This document shows, in pieces, positions 15,255-61,510 of a DNA stretch of 64,000 bases; within the stretch, counting starts at the first letter, position 1; each line of letters begins with the position of its first letter. Source of the stretch: Octopus vulgaris (taxonomy: Eukaryota); NCBI GenBank assembly GCA_951406725.2, contig OX597827.1:62992001-63056000 (forward strand), read 5' to 3'. The translations under genes were made by a program, and so were the position numbers. The notes beneath the pieces were generated by a model, which was not told where the DNA came from, made no database searches, and saw only the letters and a program-made list of their open reading frames with translations.

Positions 15255-15985
15255 AACTTCAAGAGAGTTAGGGGTTGTGAGTCCAACCCACTAAGGGATA
15301 ATACCTATCCAATATACTGTTAATAGAATACCCAATTATTAAATAAACGAGTGTTTTTTATTGCATTGCAATTACATTATATAGTGTATTAAATGGCAGA
15401 AAGTAAAGAGATATTTTACCATTAAGTTATATTGGCAATAAGAAAATGGAGAAAAATTGTTGGTTCATCCACTTTAGGACATTAAAAATGTTAACTTATT
15501 TATTTATTAAACCGATAATTATAATAACATACATACATATAAGATGTAGATATGTATGTATATTTCAGTATATATAATTAATTATCTATAACCATATATG
15601 TATGTAAGTATATATATATATATATATATTCAAATGTGTGTGTATTTTGTTTCATACTTATATTTATATTTATTATTATTGTACTTTATAACTCCTGACG
15701 AAGCCTTGAGATATATACAAGTACCTCATTTTCAACTGCCTATTACCTCAATACACTTGACTAGGCAGAATGAGATGCTTTTATCTATGGGCTGAAACAG
15801 CTGTAAGTTATTTTAATAAATTATATTCATGTTTTTTTAATAATTACTTGTATTCTTATCTTATATGCATAGAATAATATGCTATATGTATGTATGTTAT
15901 TATAATTATCAGTTTAATAAATAAATAAGTTAACATGTTTAATGTCCTAAAGATGATAAACCAACTATTGTTCTCCTCCAATATA
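15255..15985. mobile_element. Penelope-like terminal remnant with inverted segment
   Basis: Starts at (TA)n; inverted repeat ~15455-15541 vs ~15883-15970; contains a hammerhead motif followed by AATAAA. Confidence 0.6.
15688..15811 (+). ncRNA. Minimal type-I hammerhead ribozyme motif
   Basis: AUAACU-C-CUGACGA-AGCC...GGCU-GAAAC-AGCU-GUA-AGUUAU; helix I AUAACU/AGUUAU, long helix II. Confidence 0.7.
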
Positions 15986-16750
15986 TTATATATATTGGGA
16001 AGCTTTATGAAAATAAACAAAAGACGAAGGCAGGTGGAAAACAAACGAACAATTGTATTAGTATGGCGCTCATATATAAAACAAGTAACGTATACGCTCT
16101 TCAACAGAAAGATACACAGAGAGAGAAAAACACAGAAAGAAGGAGAGAAAAAAATGCGTGCAGTAGCTAACGAATCAACATATATTTCGGCCAGAGGTCA
16201 TCAAACATATAAGGGGAGATAATAGGGTTGATAAGTGGGTGTGTGTGTGTGTGTGTGTGTGTATGAGAGAGTATTAGTGCGTAAGATTGGTCTGGACGTG
16301 CGTATGTATGGGGTTGGTGTATGTATTAGTATGTATTAGTATGTATTAGTACGTATTGGTATGTATAGGTGTGTGTGTGTGTGTGAGAGAGAGTATAAGT
16401 GCGTATATATATATATATTTATACGACGGGCTTCATTCAGTTTCTTTCTACCAACTCCACTCACATATAATAATCTTTCAGATAAACTTTTGGATCATAT
16501 CAGTAATTTGCATTGAGTATTTAAGACTGCAGTACAGTAATTATGTTAATTTAAGTTTAATTTAGACCTTTCAGGCGTTTGTATCTATTACGTAGAGAAA
16601 TATATATATTAAGTTGCTTTTTTTGAAACCGGTAGATCAAACTTTATTTATATCAAGCATAAAAGATATCCTTGTTGCTATGATTCATTTATCACGGAAC
16701 TACCACGGTAGTATAATAACAGCCTTACTACTTTGCCGTTAATAACCCGT

Positions 16751-17184
16751 AGGGGAAGGAGCGGCTGTGTGGTAAGTAGCTTTCTTACCAACCACATAGC
16801 TCCAGGTTCAGTCCCAATGCGTGGCATCTTGGGCAAGTGTCTTCTACTATAGCTTCGGGCCGACCAAAGCCTTGTGAGTGGATTTGGTAGACGGAAACTG
16901 AAAGAAGCCCGTCGTATATATGCATATATATATATGCATGTATGTGTTTGTGCATATGTTCGTGTGTCTGTGTTTGTCCCCCCAACATCGTTTGACAACC
17001 GATGCTGGTGTGTTTATGTCCCCGTTACTTAGCGGTTCGGCAAAGGAGACCGAATGAAAAAGTATTAGGCGTACAAATAATAAGTCCTGGAGTCGATTTG
17101 CTCGACTAAAGGCAGGGCTCCAGCATGGCCACAGTCAAATGACTGAAACAACTAAAAGAGTAAAAGACTAAAGAGTAAAGAGTA
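16751..17184 (+). mobile_element. SINE family A, full length
   Basis: Complete head-core-microsatellite-tail match to the other copies. Confidence 0.9.
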
Positions 17185-18665
17185 ACCCGCGTATTATTAG
17201 AAGACCAATTTACAACACTGATGAAGCTGGATTAGCAATCGAAACACGGTACCATGTTAGAGCTTCATACATCTTAGAGTAATTTGTATATGTTACATTT
17301 CGTATAAACATAAATACACACGCAGAAACGCATGCACTCTCATATGTATGTGGCTCGACGGGGTTTCTATTGATTATGTCTACACAATTTCACTGACGAG
17401 GCAATTGATAAAATGGATACCGTAGTATATATAAGACGCTGTGCTATGGTTCACCGCAATGGGATCGAACACTTTAACAACATAACGATTTTTGAGCCAC
17501 AAATGAATATATTATCTATTGATCTAGTTATGAAGTGCATTTATCTATTTATCTATTTCGTTTGTCTGTTGTATATAATCTTTTTATCTATTTATGAATT
17601 ACATTTCTCTATTTATCTGTTGCATGTATCAGTTATATACATTATTTAATTATGTATTTATGAATTACTTCTCTTTCTGTGTGTAAGCAATATATAATAT
17701 CTATCAATTGAATGGTGTTTAAACGATGTATAATGTGTGTGTGTGTGTGTGTGTCTGTGTGTGTTGTGTAATGGCTATCATGTATATATGCTATGTATGT
17801 GTCTAATGTCTTCCGATCTCTTTGTCTATCTATATTTTAACCTATTACTTATGGCAAAATTCTCTTCGAGATATTGCGTTTAATGGCATACACACATACA
17901 CATACACACACACAGATAGACAGACAGATAGATAGACAGACAGACAGACAGATAGATAGATAGATAGATAGATAGATAGATAGATAGATAGATAGATAGA
18001 TAGATAGATAGATAGATAGATAGATAGATAGATAGTCAAATAGACAGACAAACGGACAGATAGATAGATAGATAGATAGATAGATAGATAGATAGATAGA
18101 TAGATAGATAGATAGATAGATAGATAGATAGATAGATAGGTAGAATTATAGGATAGACAAGGAAACAAGTGGTATAGTGTCACATTATCGTATATTTATA
18201 TTTATACATCATATACAGAAAAACCAATGCATAAAGGGATATAAATCACTGGAGAAATATTAAAAGTTCCACTATGAATAACTCCTGATATTTGGGATGT
18301 CTGCTGGTAGACTGAGAGAAGGGGCCTCGAAATAAGTCCACACTAGTGATATGACACAGCGTTGTAGGTAGAAGACCATCATCACAGGTGGGTACACAGA
18401 TTTGACCGGACAACTAAATGTATGCACCTGACATCGTATTATTCGTTATATGTGTGTATATCTATCTATCTATCTATCTATCTATCTATCTATCTATCTA
18501 TCTATCTATCTATCTATCTATCTATCTACCTCTCTCTCTCTCTCTCTCTCTCTATATATATATATATATATATATATATATATATAATTAGGTACAATAA
18601 ACTCAGGGTGAATACTTGATAAATGTAAGCACCTGTATATGCCAGCTAGTAGCATAGGTGATAGG

Positions 18666-58694: not shown

Positions 58695-58926
58695 TACAGA
58701 TATTTATTTGTATAATACATGTTTTTATACATCATATAACTTATATCATATATCATATATCATATATCATATATCATTTCGTCCATTCTGGTGGATTTTT
58801 CATATGAAAAATCCACCAGAATGACACAATTTGAAAATCCACCAGAATGAACGAAAGCGTTAATATATGATATATGATATATGATATGATGTATAAAAAC
58901 ATGTAATATACAAATAAATATCTGTA
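58695..58926. repeat. Foldback in a (TA)n-flanked insert (58612-58926)
   Basis: TACAGATATTTATTTGTATAATACATGTTTTTATACATCATA pairs with the right end; inner CATTCTGGTGGATTTT pairs with two copies of AAAATCCACCAGAATG. Confidence 0.85.
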
Positions 58927-61154
58927 TATATATATATATATATATATATATATATATATATATATGTGTGTGTGTGTTTGTGTGTGTGTGTGTATGTGTG
59001 TGTAAATATATATATATATATATATATATGCATGTATTTATGCATATATGTGTATGTGCATTAGATAATATTATTGTCTTTACGTTGCCTATTCATGTTC
59101 AAACTTGGTTGAGACTTTTCTTACAGAATACAATATGGCTGACTATTTCCTCATCGCCCTCACTTAGTCTTTAATTACTTTCCCACTTTCGTTGAATATG
59201 CCTTTGTTAATGTCCAAAAGGAAGTCTTCATTATTTTTATTTCTCTTTTTATTTGTTATTTTTACTTATTTATTTAATTATTCTAGCTGCCTTCAAATTT
59301 CTCCATCTCGAATTTTAGTTCTGTGCTTCCCAGCCAATGCTGAATAATTCTTGAAGGTTTCTCTTTTTCTTTCCTGCCTTGTCTTTCTGCATTCTTGTCG
59401 GGTATCGACCACGGAGGATCTGTTCTAGCTAAAGTCTTAGTACGATATTTTGTATTAGTTCAGCTTTTAATTTAGTTTCTTAATACATCATATTATCGTT
59501 TCTTCATCATCTTCACAGCAGTCTGCTACCCTCGCTGATGTCTTATATTTATTAGGCTCCCCGGAGAGCGAAAGCAAATTGAGTTTTAGTTCACGCTATA
59601 AAGCTCTTTCCGTTAGTTTGTTTCTTTATTCTTCAGCAGACAATTTCGTACTATAACAGGAGAGATATTTTATAATAGATTTTCTAGATGGAGAAGACCA
59701 CCCTAACACCATTTGTTCGCAGTCAATATAATCGCATATCGACTTTTTGGTGATGTATTCGAAATTGCACTTGTTTTTTTCTTATGTTCCCTTTTAGTCC
59801 TGCTAATTCACTTAACTTGAAATTGGAAATATTATAACTACAAGTTATTCAATATAATGCTTCTATGATATTCCTCCATGACATTTCCTTTCATTTTCAT
59901 CTGTTGCACTCATTAATTCCTTCTATTTGTAAGAGTACACGCGGTGTAATTCTGTTATATCGGTCTTTTTCTATGTAATATGTTATCACGCGTTTATACT
60001 AATTTTCACTTTTGTACAGTATTCTTGGCGCTTTTTTCAAAGCGGAATTCTACATCAATTTCCCACCTGAATCTTACTTGTACCCTGTGTAACACACAAC
60101 GTGTCAACTTGCATAGAATCTGCAGTGTTCCCGTTTACTCCACCTTTTAGTTGTAAGATATCGTTCATCACAATTGTATACTATAATCCATCGTACACAG
60201 TCTGGTTTGGGTTTGATAACAAAAAAAAAAATACCAGTGAAGTACTGGAGTCGATATAACCAGCAAAACCTATACTCTACAATTTTGGTCAAGGCGACGA
60301 GCTGACAGAATCGTTAGCACGCTCTACGTTTTGAGTTCAAATTTCACTGAGGTCGGCTTAGCTTTTCTTCCTAACGTGGTCGATAAAATAAGTTCCAGTC
60401 GAGTCCTGGGGATAATGTAATCGACTTTCCCATTACCAACAATTTCAAGACTTATGCTTAAGAATAAACGATTATTATTATTATTATTATTATTATTATT
60501 ATTATTATTATTATTATTATTATTATTATTATTATTATTATTATTATTATTATTATTATTATTACCATCATCATTATCATTATCGGTATTACTATTATTA
60601 AGTATTGGAGACGATCTAATCGGCTGGCCCCCTTCCCAAAGTGTCAGGCCTTGTAGCTATATATATGCCTCTCTCATTGGAGTACTCTTTTTTCCACCCC
60701 ACCTTGTTTCACATTTATGTGCTTCCTCCAGTATATGTATTATTATTATATATATATATATATATATATATATATATATATATATATATATATATATATA
60801 TATACATATATATGTACGTATATCTACATGTATATATACATGCATATATGGGTACAGGACATTTTCCTTGTTTTGTATGTCCTGTACTCTATTTTTTCGT
60901 TGTTTAAGAAAAATGTCCATTTCCTTGGTTTTGTGTTTATGTTTTCGTTTCTTATTGTGTTCGACGTTTTTTTTGGGGGGTGTCCTGTACCCATATATGC
61001 ATGTATATATACATGTAGAGGTATGTACGTACATATATGTATGTATGTATATATGCATATGTTTTATTTATTTATTAATTTATTATATGACGGAACGCAC
61101 GCATCCTTTTCTAAGTAAGATTGTTCTATATATATATATATATATATATATATA

Positions 61155-61510
61155 AATATTTTTTTTTCAGAATGAGAAAAATATCCAAGGCTGTGAAGTA
61201 TTTTAGAACATTTATAAATAGAAGGTCTTACAGCTGTTTCCGGGATATTTATTATATCCCTTCATCGGAGACGGTGTGTGAAAATAGTTAAGCAGTAGTT
61301 AATTTAGATAAGATATGAAATAGAGAGTGAAGTGGAGGAATGAAAATAGATGTGAGATATGCAGGGATATTGCATTTGTAGATCCATTATTTAGGCAGAA
61401 TTGTATACATATAAGATTCCAATACCTTGTGAGTAAATTCCAATAGTATTTAAAATTGGTCATTCCAAGTATAGTGTTTGTACAAAGTGCTATTGAATCG
61501 AGGGTTTATC
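61155..61510 (-). mobile_element. PLE-like family E, copy 3, variant hammerhead 61225-61272
   Basis: GUCU-CCGAUGA-A-GGGAUAU-AAUAA-AUAUCCC-G-GAAAC-AGCU-GUA-AGAC; begins at (TA)n. Confidence 0.75.

Follow-up and report, generated by a model that had tools for sequence, protein, structure and literature searches.

A 64,000-nucleotide stretch of the Octopus vulgaris genome (contig OX597827.1 of assembly GCA_951406725.2, positions 62,992,001 to 63,056,000; hereinafter, the window) raises the question of what kind of genetic element gives rise to short, hairpin-forming inserts that lie in (TA)n microsatellites and, in some cases, contain hammerhead ribozyme motifs. A first-pass annotation of the window singled out six such inserts (here A to F, in the order of their positions) and took them for non-coding derivatives of Penelope-like elements (PLEs). 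Our analysis leads us to conclude that these short non-coding inserts are, on balance, probably passengers resembling short interspersed nuclear elements (SINEs), copied in trans by a PLE protein that combines a reverse transcriptase (RT) with a GIY-YIG domain. The connection to PLEs is well supported by the anatomy of the inserts; mobilisation in trans and descent from a particular PLE are inferred, no parent element having been found. Published work is cited below by identifier.

The foldback structure was found in all six inserts, and the proposed common plan, an unpaired extension followed by an inverted repeat, is thereby borne out, with arms of 44-225 nt and extensions of 79-192 nt. Insert A (15256-15976) combines a left extension of 192 nt with arms of 94 nt at 15448-15541 and 15883-15976 (92.6% identity). 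Insert B (18587-18982) has an extension of 79 nt and arms at 18666-18818 and 18830-18982 (148 of 153 positions identical) separated by a loop of 11 nt, and insert C (19532-20132) has an extension of 146 nt and arms at 19678-19898 and 19913-20132 (219 of 221 alignment columns) with a loop of 14 nt. In insert D (25558-25808), the arms are 44 nt long (42 identical), the loop 54 nt and the extension 109 nt; insert E (44447-45001) contains arms of 225 nt (222 of 227 columns), a loop of 17 nt and an extension of 88 nt; and the arms of insert F (58612-58930) align with 91 matches, 6 mismatches and 12 gap columns next to an extension of 79 nt, this insert also including an internal 7-nt repeat and a duplicated junction. 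Each foldback has the form of an inverted, 5'-truncated copy attached head to head to a longer one, the orientation being given in A, B and C by the hammerhead. The arms of B, C and E differ by a few substitutions or indels, which argues against a simple mirror artefact of assembly. The inserts are unrelated in sequence, as originally stated: the best pairwise blastn matches among the six span 11-27 nt, with E >= 0.03.

All six inserts had been described as flanked by (TA)n on each side. Perfect (TA)n of at least five units within 15 nt of both ends is present in five, whereas A is preceded by (TA)24 on the left and followed by only a degenerate TA stretch on the right; insertion into (TA)n, as in the Hydra and Naiad PLEs, is evident on both sides in five inserts and on one side in the sixth. 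The flanking tracts are (TA)17 and (TA)10 in B, (TA)33 and (TA)34 in C, and (TA)60 and (TA)19 in E; D and F also have TA on both sides. Under random placement, the probability of both ends falling at TA runs is approximately 0.001-0.002 per insert, a value that is not unbiased because the inserts were originally chosen as TA-bound. In the region 18553-21040, five different inserts follow one another with TA tracts between them (B, 18997-19464, C, 20220-20365 and a member of a family denoted G), an arrangement that fits repeated targeting of one TA tract; neither a foldback nor a hammerhead was found in 18997-19464 or 20220-20365. The extension lies on the left in all six named inserts, as reported, and also in a seventh foldback, the first copy of family G (20366-20780; arms of 29 nt, extension of 351 nt), but on the right in an eighth, which belongs to a family denoted H (60802-61125). 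A strand bias was therefore rejected as an established fact (seven of eight, p=0.07, with one counterexample), and the side on which the extension lies indicates no more than which strand the long-3'-end copy is on.

The hammerhead motifs were assessed with a strict descriptor that requires a CUGANGA core, a helix I of at least 3 bp, a helix II of at least 2 bp and a helix II domain of up to 130 nt. It produced 4 matches in the window (one in A, one in B and two in C), whereas 40 dinucleotide shuffles yielded 0.025 on average and never more than 1; 0 of 300 shuffles of each insert reached the score of A, B or C. With the helix II span limited to at most 40 nt, no match was obtained in the window. 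The type I hammerhead of A (15695-15805, plus strand, counted from the core to the predicted cleavage site) has a CUGACGA core, a helix II domain of 92 nt, a helix III of ACAGCUGU, a helix I of 6 bp and one extra nucleotide ahead of the core. In B, the long copy contains a type I hammerhead at 18718-18802 (minus strand; CUGAAGA, helix II domain of 66 nt, helix III ACAUAUGU), and the second copy, in the short arm (18846-18930, plus strand), fails the descriptor, one substitution weakening helix I. In C, the hammerhead of the long copy (19748-19821, minus strand; CUGAAGA, helix III ACACGUGU) has a helix II domain of 55 nt with 11 bp scored, and an identical hammerhead is present in the short copy (19989-20062, plus strand). 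The strict matches share a perfect CUGANGA, a long helix II, GAAA, a CANNUG palindrome and a predicted GUA cleavage triplet, and helix I is present, together with the long helix II as an imperfect rod, in the minimum free energy folds of all three inserts. The helix III 8-mers of A, B, C and two copies of family G are self-complementary and represent three different sequences; self-complementarity of helix III is described as a mark of hammerheads that act as dimers (PMC4209133).

The predicted complete type I fold is confined to A, B and C, where it has the location typical of PLEs, near the 3' end or within the pseudo-long terminal repeat (pLTR), and the assertion that all six inserts carry hammerheads does not hold: complete ones are found in three of the six. 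Tolerating one mismatch in the core did not bring up any match in D, E or F, and E contains a partial core that is recognizable by eye only (UUGAAGA, hairpin, GAAA), with no helix I or III. Nor are these hammerheads 'minimal', as had been claimed, given that the helix II domain of 55-92 nt is far longer than usual. The estimate of about a dozen hammerhead-like motifs can be retained only if variant and half cores are counted, the strict descriptor giving four. When one core mismatch was allowed, the window yielded 18 matches against a null mean of 10.5 and maximum of 17, and such matches are near chance below a score of 10. Isolated CUGANGA...GAAA pairs at 17218, 27978, 37239, 43816 and 56173 lack helices and were discarded, a similar number being expected by chance according to a rough estimate. 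A comparison with Rfam over B and C (18587-20132) at E<=10 gave 36 rows and no hammerhead family; in the whole window, the 150 of 319 matches listed are all of the miRNA/snoRNA type and below gathering scores.

Further evidence on the origin of the foldbacks comes from public sequencing runs, in which all family-level data pertain to insert C alone. Family C is present in 20 runs from 8 studies, 19 of these runs containing at least half of the words of the insert (a wastewater run with a share of 0.14 was not used); contigs, rather than reads, of four runs (denoted X1, X2, X3 and X9 where they need to be told apart) were aligned to 19532-19960 at 85% likeness. Among the 18 foldback joints, 15 end at 19896-19898 and the others at 19903, 19909 and 19927. 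On the other side, the 15 joints are scattered over 19582-19854 at no fewer than 13 distinct points; 6 of the rows precede and 9 follow the short end (19678), where no pile-up is seen. Each joint is the foldback junction of another copy, in which the start of one arm is fixed (19896-19898, plus strand; the putative 5' end of the RNA) and the other arm is cut anywhere. Post-insertion deletion as a cause of the variable junctions was rejected because one breakpoint is fixed. Joints of this type occur in three runs from three studies. In 4 contigs of run X3, (TA)n directly precedes position 19682, so that the short 3' end of C recurs as well; both 3' ends recur in the family, in which the one-sided extension is 146 nt and the unit, from the fixed start to the long end, is approximately 380 nt long. 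Of 12 filler strings shown, 4 terminate in ATG or CATG(G), and one of these repeats 10 nt of the start of the unit in inverted form, which snap-back of the cDNA would be expected to produce; for comparison, junction palindromes are described in PMC3846280.

The summed depth over C is 1e5-1.6e6 in three non-RNA runs compared with 21-64 for single joints, which corresponds to thousands of copies at best, given that overlapping contigs inflate the sum. A subfamily of C, represented by 8 contigs in X1 and 2 contigs in X3, shows a double change from CACGTG to CATATG that keeps the palindrome. The listed variants affect 0 of 43 positions of the core, helix II and helix III versus 5 of 31 positions of loop II (Fisher p=0.011); with variants in DNA runs only, the loop II count is 3 of 31 (p=0.07). 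Upstream of 19897, loose letters match the 3' end of the unit at 9 of 10 positions by eye (4 contigs of X1 and 7 of X2), which hints at a putative head-to-tail source unit of approximately 395 nt; no head-to-tail tandem units with a hammerhead were found in the window. A 16-mer scan of viral contigs for C detected 18 loci with matches of no more than 23 nt, attributable to chance, and in 21-mer scans, neither the metagenome contigs nor those of GTDB contained any match. At the centre of B (18829, minus strand), E (about 44767, minus strand), C (19897, plus strand) and the first G copy (20745, plus strand), an arm begins with AGT, which may represent a shared initiator-like 5' end, a fixed start having been seen in C only. 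A>G differences from insert C were observed at 19731, 19774 and 19779 in run X9 and are nearly absent in the three other runs; they could reflect A-to-I editing of hairpin RNA, at depths of 2.7-8.8 and in a run for which the RNA label is a guess.

How do these features compare with those of known elements? The layout of the inserts, an inverted truncated copy, a one-sided tail, TA flanks and a hammerhead, is that of published PLE biology. PLE insertions include a 5'-truncated copy in inverted orientation and, on one side only, a tail of 30-40 nt; they favour (TA)n, and three TA-targeting PLEs are described in octopuses (Hydra-1_Obim, Naiad_Obim and Naiad_Ovul), the last with a 'half core' hammerhead (PMC8557442). 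Type I hammerheads are likewise reported for PLE insertions (PMC8557442; PMC4209133). The inserts thus resemble the endonuclease-containing (EN+) PLEs, namely the Hydra clade and the Naiads, in the (TA)n target, the head-to-head inverted copy, the one-sided extension and the presence in octopus and, specifically, the Hydra clade in the type I hammerhead near the 3' end. They differ from EN+ PLEs in the absence of an open reading frame (ORF), in an extension of 79-192 rather than 30-40 nt and in the lack of a sequence match, and from the listed Hydra hammerheads, which have short helix II hairpins, in the helix II domain of 55-92 nt; the core-only hammerhead search in PMC8557442 used a spacer of 7-17 nt. 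Likewise shared with the minimal PLE hammerheads in the available part of PMC4209133 are the type I topology, the palindromic helix III that implies a dimer, the occurrence of many unrelated families per genome, the opposite-strand pairs 100-700 bp apart and the core variants. Here, by contrast, helix III consists of a CANNUG palindrome of 6 nt with A-U closure, helix II forms a long rod with imperfect pairing, and the junctions with a fixed start and a variable stop are not reported in that part of the paper.

Among 300 of the 301 stop-free frames of at least 45 aa that lie outside the SINE and microsatellite regions of the window, compared with Pfam, none matched an RT or GIY-YIG family, so that no PLE protein and no ORF with a PLE-type RT joined to GIY-YIG, as in autonomous EN+ PLEs, was found in the window; the only domains above the curated cut-offs in these 300 frames are of the Tc1/mariner type. 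The closest parallel for small non-coding units is provided by the non-LTR retrozymes, units of a few hundred nucleotides with a type I hammerhead, for which dispersed monomers are known and which have been proposed to be non-autonomous PLE derivatives (PMC7229834; bioRxiv 10.64898/2026.07.22.740005). Families C and G conform to the description of a non-coding unit of this size with a type I hammerhead or a motif like it. The retrozymes are defined by head-to-tail arrays and circular RNAs in the available text, whereas the inserts here are head to head in (TA)n, with a tandem form only hinted at; the available main text of PMC7229834 mentions neither octopus nor inverted copies nor microsatellites. 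Judging from this anatomy, the inserts would work like PLE insertions and fail as autonomous PLEs, and they are not established as retrozymes. No account of these octopus elements or of PLE hammerheads with a helix II of 55-92 nt was found in the open-licence literature; the long helix II looks new and so does an ORF-less unit of approximately 380 nt with its own 5' end, although the families may already be listed in Repbase, Dfam or the Zenodo library of PMC13282606 as unknown or SINE repeats.

The route that we propose for the passengers would begin with an RNA of approximately 380 nt that starts at 19897, probably from an internal promoter. The PLE protein would nick both strands of a (TA)n tract, and reverse transcription could start at either of two sites, located 70 or 216 nt past the predicted cleavage site of C, the difference between the two appearing as the unpaired extension, or tail. 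One cDNA would reach the 5' end of the RNA, sometimes snapping back over a few bases, and the other would halt early; joining of the cDNA ends through short microhomology or filler would yield the foldback, and the TA remaining on both sides could become a target for later insertions. The capacities invoked have precedents: the protein of an anole PLE cleaves and extends both strands of AT-rich DNA, begins on its RNA at two internal sites by which the tail is defined, is predicted to dimerise and does not depend on hammerhead cleavage for insertion in vitro (PMC11167929), and a pLTR sequence is enough for mobilisation in trans (PMC3846280). In tandem source RNAs, two hammerheads would pair through the self-complementary helix III and cleave in dimeric form; in the transcript of a foldback, the antisense arm would mask the ribozyme. 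Inserts D, E and F are tentatively placed on the same route by their layout only.

Twin priming of L1, in which cDNAs primed from two target strands give an inversion whose parts overlap little or not at all, involves two cDNAs and two target strands in the same manner. Unlike in L1, the two arms here have as much as 225 nt in common, and the stops are not clustered at the second start site, so that two templates or strand displacement are needed; twin priming on one template with a collision is disfavoured, the stops lying on both sides of 19678. In its most extended form, which we offer as a tentative and distinctly less probable proposition, the scheme has the octopus genome harbouring a number of PLE-SINE families, unrelated to one another, 300-400 nt long, free of ORFs and equipped with their own promoters, with an extended-helix-II hammerhead that is missed by Rfam and by short-spacer descriptors; these would be copied by a dimeric PLE protein on two RNA templates at once and would have seeded TA microsatellites with thousands of hairpins of 150-225 bp, which would enter the A-to-I editing and small-RNA pathways of the host.

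Several observations weigh against PLE-copied passengers as the explanation. The original interpretation of the inserts as PLE derivatives fares well with respect to anatomy, non-coding nature and the high copy number of C, but not with respect to homology: neither an autonomous partner nor PLE sequence similarity was found, no match by eye was seen to the 3' ends of Naiad_Ovul, Naiad_Obim and Hydra-1_Obim, and 0 of 4 window 12-mers, searched on one strand only, occur in the supplement of PMC8557442. Half of the named inserts (D, E and F) contain no detectable hammerhead, and all the extensions exceed the published tail length. Conservation of the hammerhead core relative to all other positions of C is not significant (p=0.09 and 0.24). 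The sides of the joints are short (23-28 nt), and some rows may represent one locus in two runs. The C junction of the window itself is not bridged by any contig piece with 31 nt on both sides among the 32 of 8323 shown. Finally, one sense frame downstream of the C hammerhead is open to the 3' end, over approximately 70 codons with no Pfam match.

This open frame is what the start of a PLE ORF could look like, and it is one of the reasons to consider that the inserts are abortive end fragments (solo pLTRs) of several autonomous PLE families, produced by the same enzyme and the same joining. In such a case, reverse transcription would begin in a pLTR of a full-length PLE RNA and halt at once or begin in the 5' pLTR and reach the 5' end of the RNA; an autonomous RNA with RT start sites in the 5' pLTR could produce the fixed 5' end as well. 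The literature offers precedents: most minimal animal hammerheads are single and 'probably related to truncated PLEs', some forming the opposite-strand pairs mentioned above (PMC4209133); Hydra PLEs hit (TA)n and have the hammerhead some 100-180 nt from the 3' end, and Penelope-13_HM is found with an attached inverted 5'-truncated copy (PMC8557442); and Octopus vulgaris harbours 31 recently active PLE families (PMC13282606). Nevertheless, no ORF remnant adjoins any of the inserts, the copy depth is very high, the hinted head-to-tail C unit would leave no room for an ORF, and no contigs with at least 20 further unlike letters were recovered in three DNA or untyped runs (weak evidence, the contigs being short). 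We regard this explanation as possible, albeit clearly less probable than passengers copied in trans.

Two other possibilities seem far less plausible. The six inserts could share their look and not their mechanism, A to C being related to PLEs, and D to F being other repeats made palindromic by cDNA snap-back or by DNA repair at fragile TA sites. Tracts of (TA)n extrude cruciforms and break easily, D, E and F lack hammerheads, and the inserts have no mutual sequence similarity, all of which is compatible with such a mixed origin. We nonetheless consider it improbable because D to F share the polarity of parts of A to C, are flanked by TA on both sides and have extensions of similar length (79-109 nt). 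Moreover, a ribozyme could have been lost from D, which is short, by truncation, E keeps the partial core, and Naiad PLEs, which lack canonical hammerheads, still have this layout (PMC8557442). Even less credible, in our assessment, is that the inserts are miniature inverted-repeat transposable elements (MITEs) or foldback DNA transposons at TA sites, or else assembly artefacts. The former would accord with the length of the inverted repeats, the TA targets and the presence of Tc1/mariner remnants in the window, and the latter with the unbridged C junction. However, the inverted repeats are not terminal, 79-192 unpaired nucleotides being outermost on one side in all six inserts rather than inverted repeats at both ends; the internal structure is not uniform as in MITEs, the junctions of C differing from copy to copy with one side fixed; and the hammerheads outscore their own shuffles. 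The divergence between the arms and the recurrence of foldback-type joints in three studies are likewise difficult to reconcile with artefacts.

Other TA-bound inserts in the window contain less complete ribozyme-like motifs. Family G is a unit of approximately 365-385 nt with three copies, in which helix III is as in the strict hammerheads and the core is CCGAUGA. In the first copy, this variant core (20473-20434, minus strand) has a lesion at U16.1; the second (61150-61515, minus strand; approximately 365 nt), which starts within a few nucleotides of the start of the first, contains a hammerhead-like motif at 61268-61229 (minus strand) with a 7-bp helix II and a helix III of ACAGCUGU; the third (28115-28290, minus strand) is 5'-truncated, with the same motif at 28232-28189 (minus strand) and (TA)22 at its 3' end. 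The TA-bound family H, of approximately 310 nt, includes 50115-50345, 53467-53775 and 60862-61125, of which the first two have a CUGANGA half core with helix I-like pairing and no GAAA half. Two G copies and two H copies each begin at nearly one point. The TA-bound insert J (58180-58330, plus strand), of which a deleted copy is present at 15981-16124 (minus strand), contains a compact hammerhead-like motif (58197-58224, CUGUUGA core) with a score of 7, which is within the null range; by eye, the same CUGUUGA variant can also be recognized close to the 3' end in both published Naiad consensus sequences (Naiad_Ovul and Naiad_Obim). The TA-bound inserts 9230-9460 and 23840-24110 look alike by eye, and neither is a foldback or contains a hammerhead that passes the descriptor.

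The surrounding DNA is AT-rich animal DNA with 121 tandem-repeat rows in the window, mostly microsatellites, and several dispersed repeat families of 150-400 nt, which we take to be octopus SINEs. A SINE-like family is represented at 62209-63063 by three to four partial copies in head-to-tail order. Decayed Tc1-like (HTH_23, DDE_3) and mariner-like (HTH_48) transposons lie at 48635-49745 and 54000-55350, the latter split by a 230-nt repeat at 54264-54497. For a mariner fragment, the closest named match, one of three, is a protein of Octopus bimaculoides with 69% identity, which agrees weakly with an octopus as the host. Degraded, older inverted repeats with 70-80% identity and no TA-bound extension (22771-23341, 43467-44026 and 39145-39222) are possibly MITE remnants.

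The basic foldback architecture is not new in itself, and the informative part of these observations is the ribozyme variant together with the junction pattern. The origin of the inverted structures of PLEs has been named an open problem (PMC8557442). With two start sites, one fixed stop and independent junctions in the thousands, a short family would allow the competing models, namely self-priming, twin priming on one template and a two-template dimer, to be compared by direct counts in a genome that already exists. If helix II is often this long, the number of hammerheads in genomes of this kind would be underestimated; Rfam shows no hammerhead over B and C at E<=10. Once transcribed, the foldbacks would be very stable hairpins, with predicted folding energies of -257 to -420 kcal/mol for B, E and C, in a group of animals known for heavy RNA editing.

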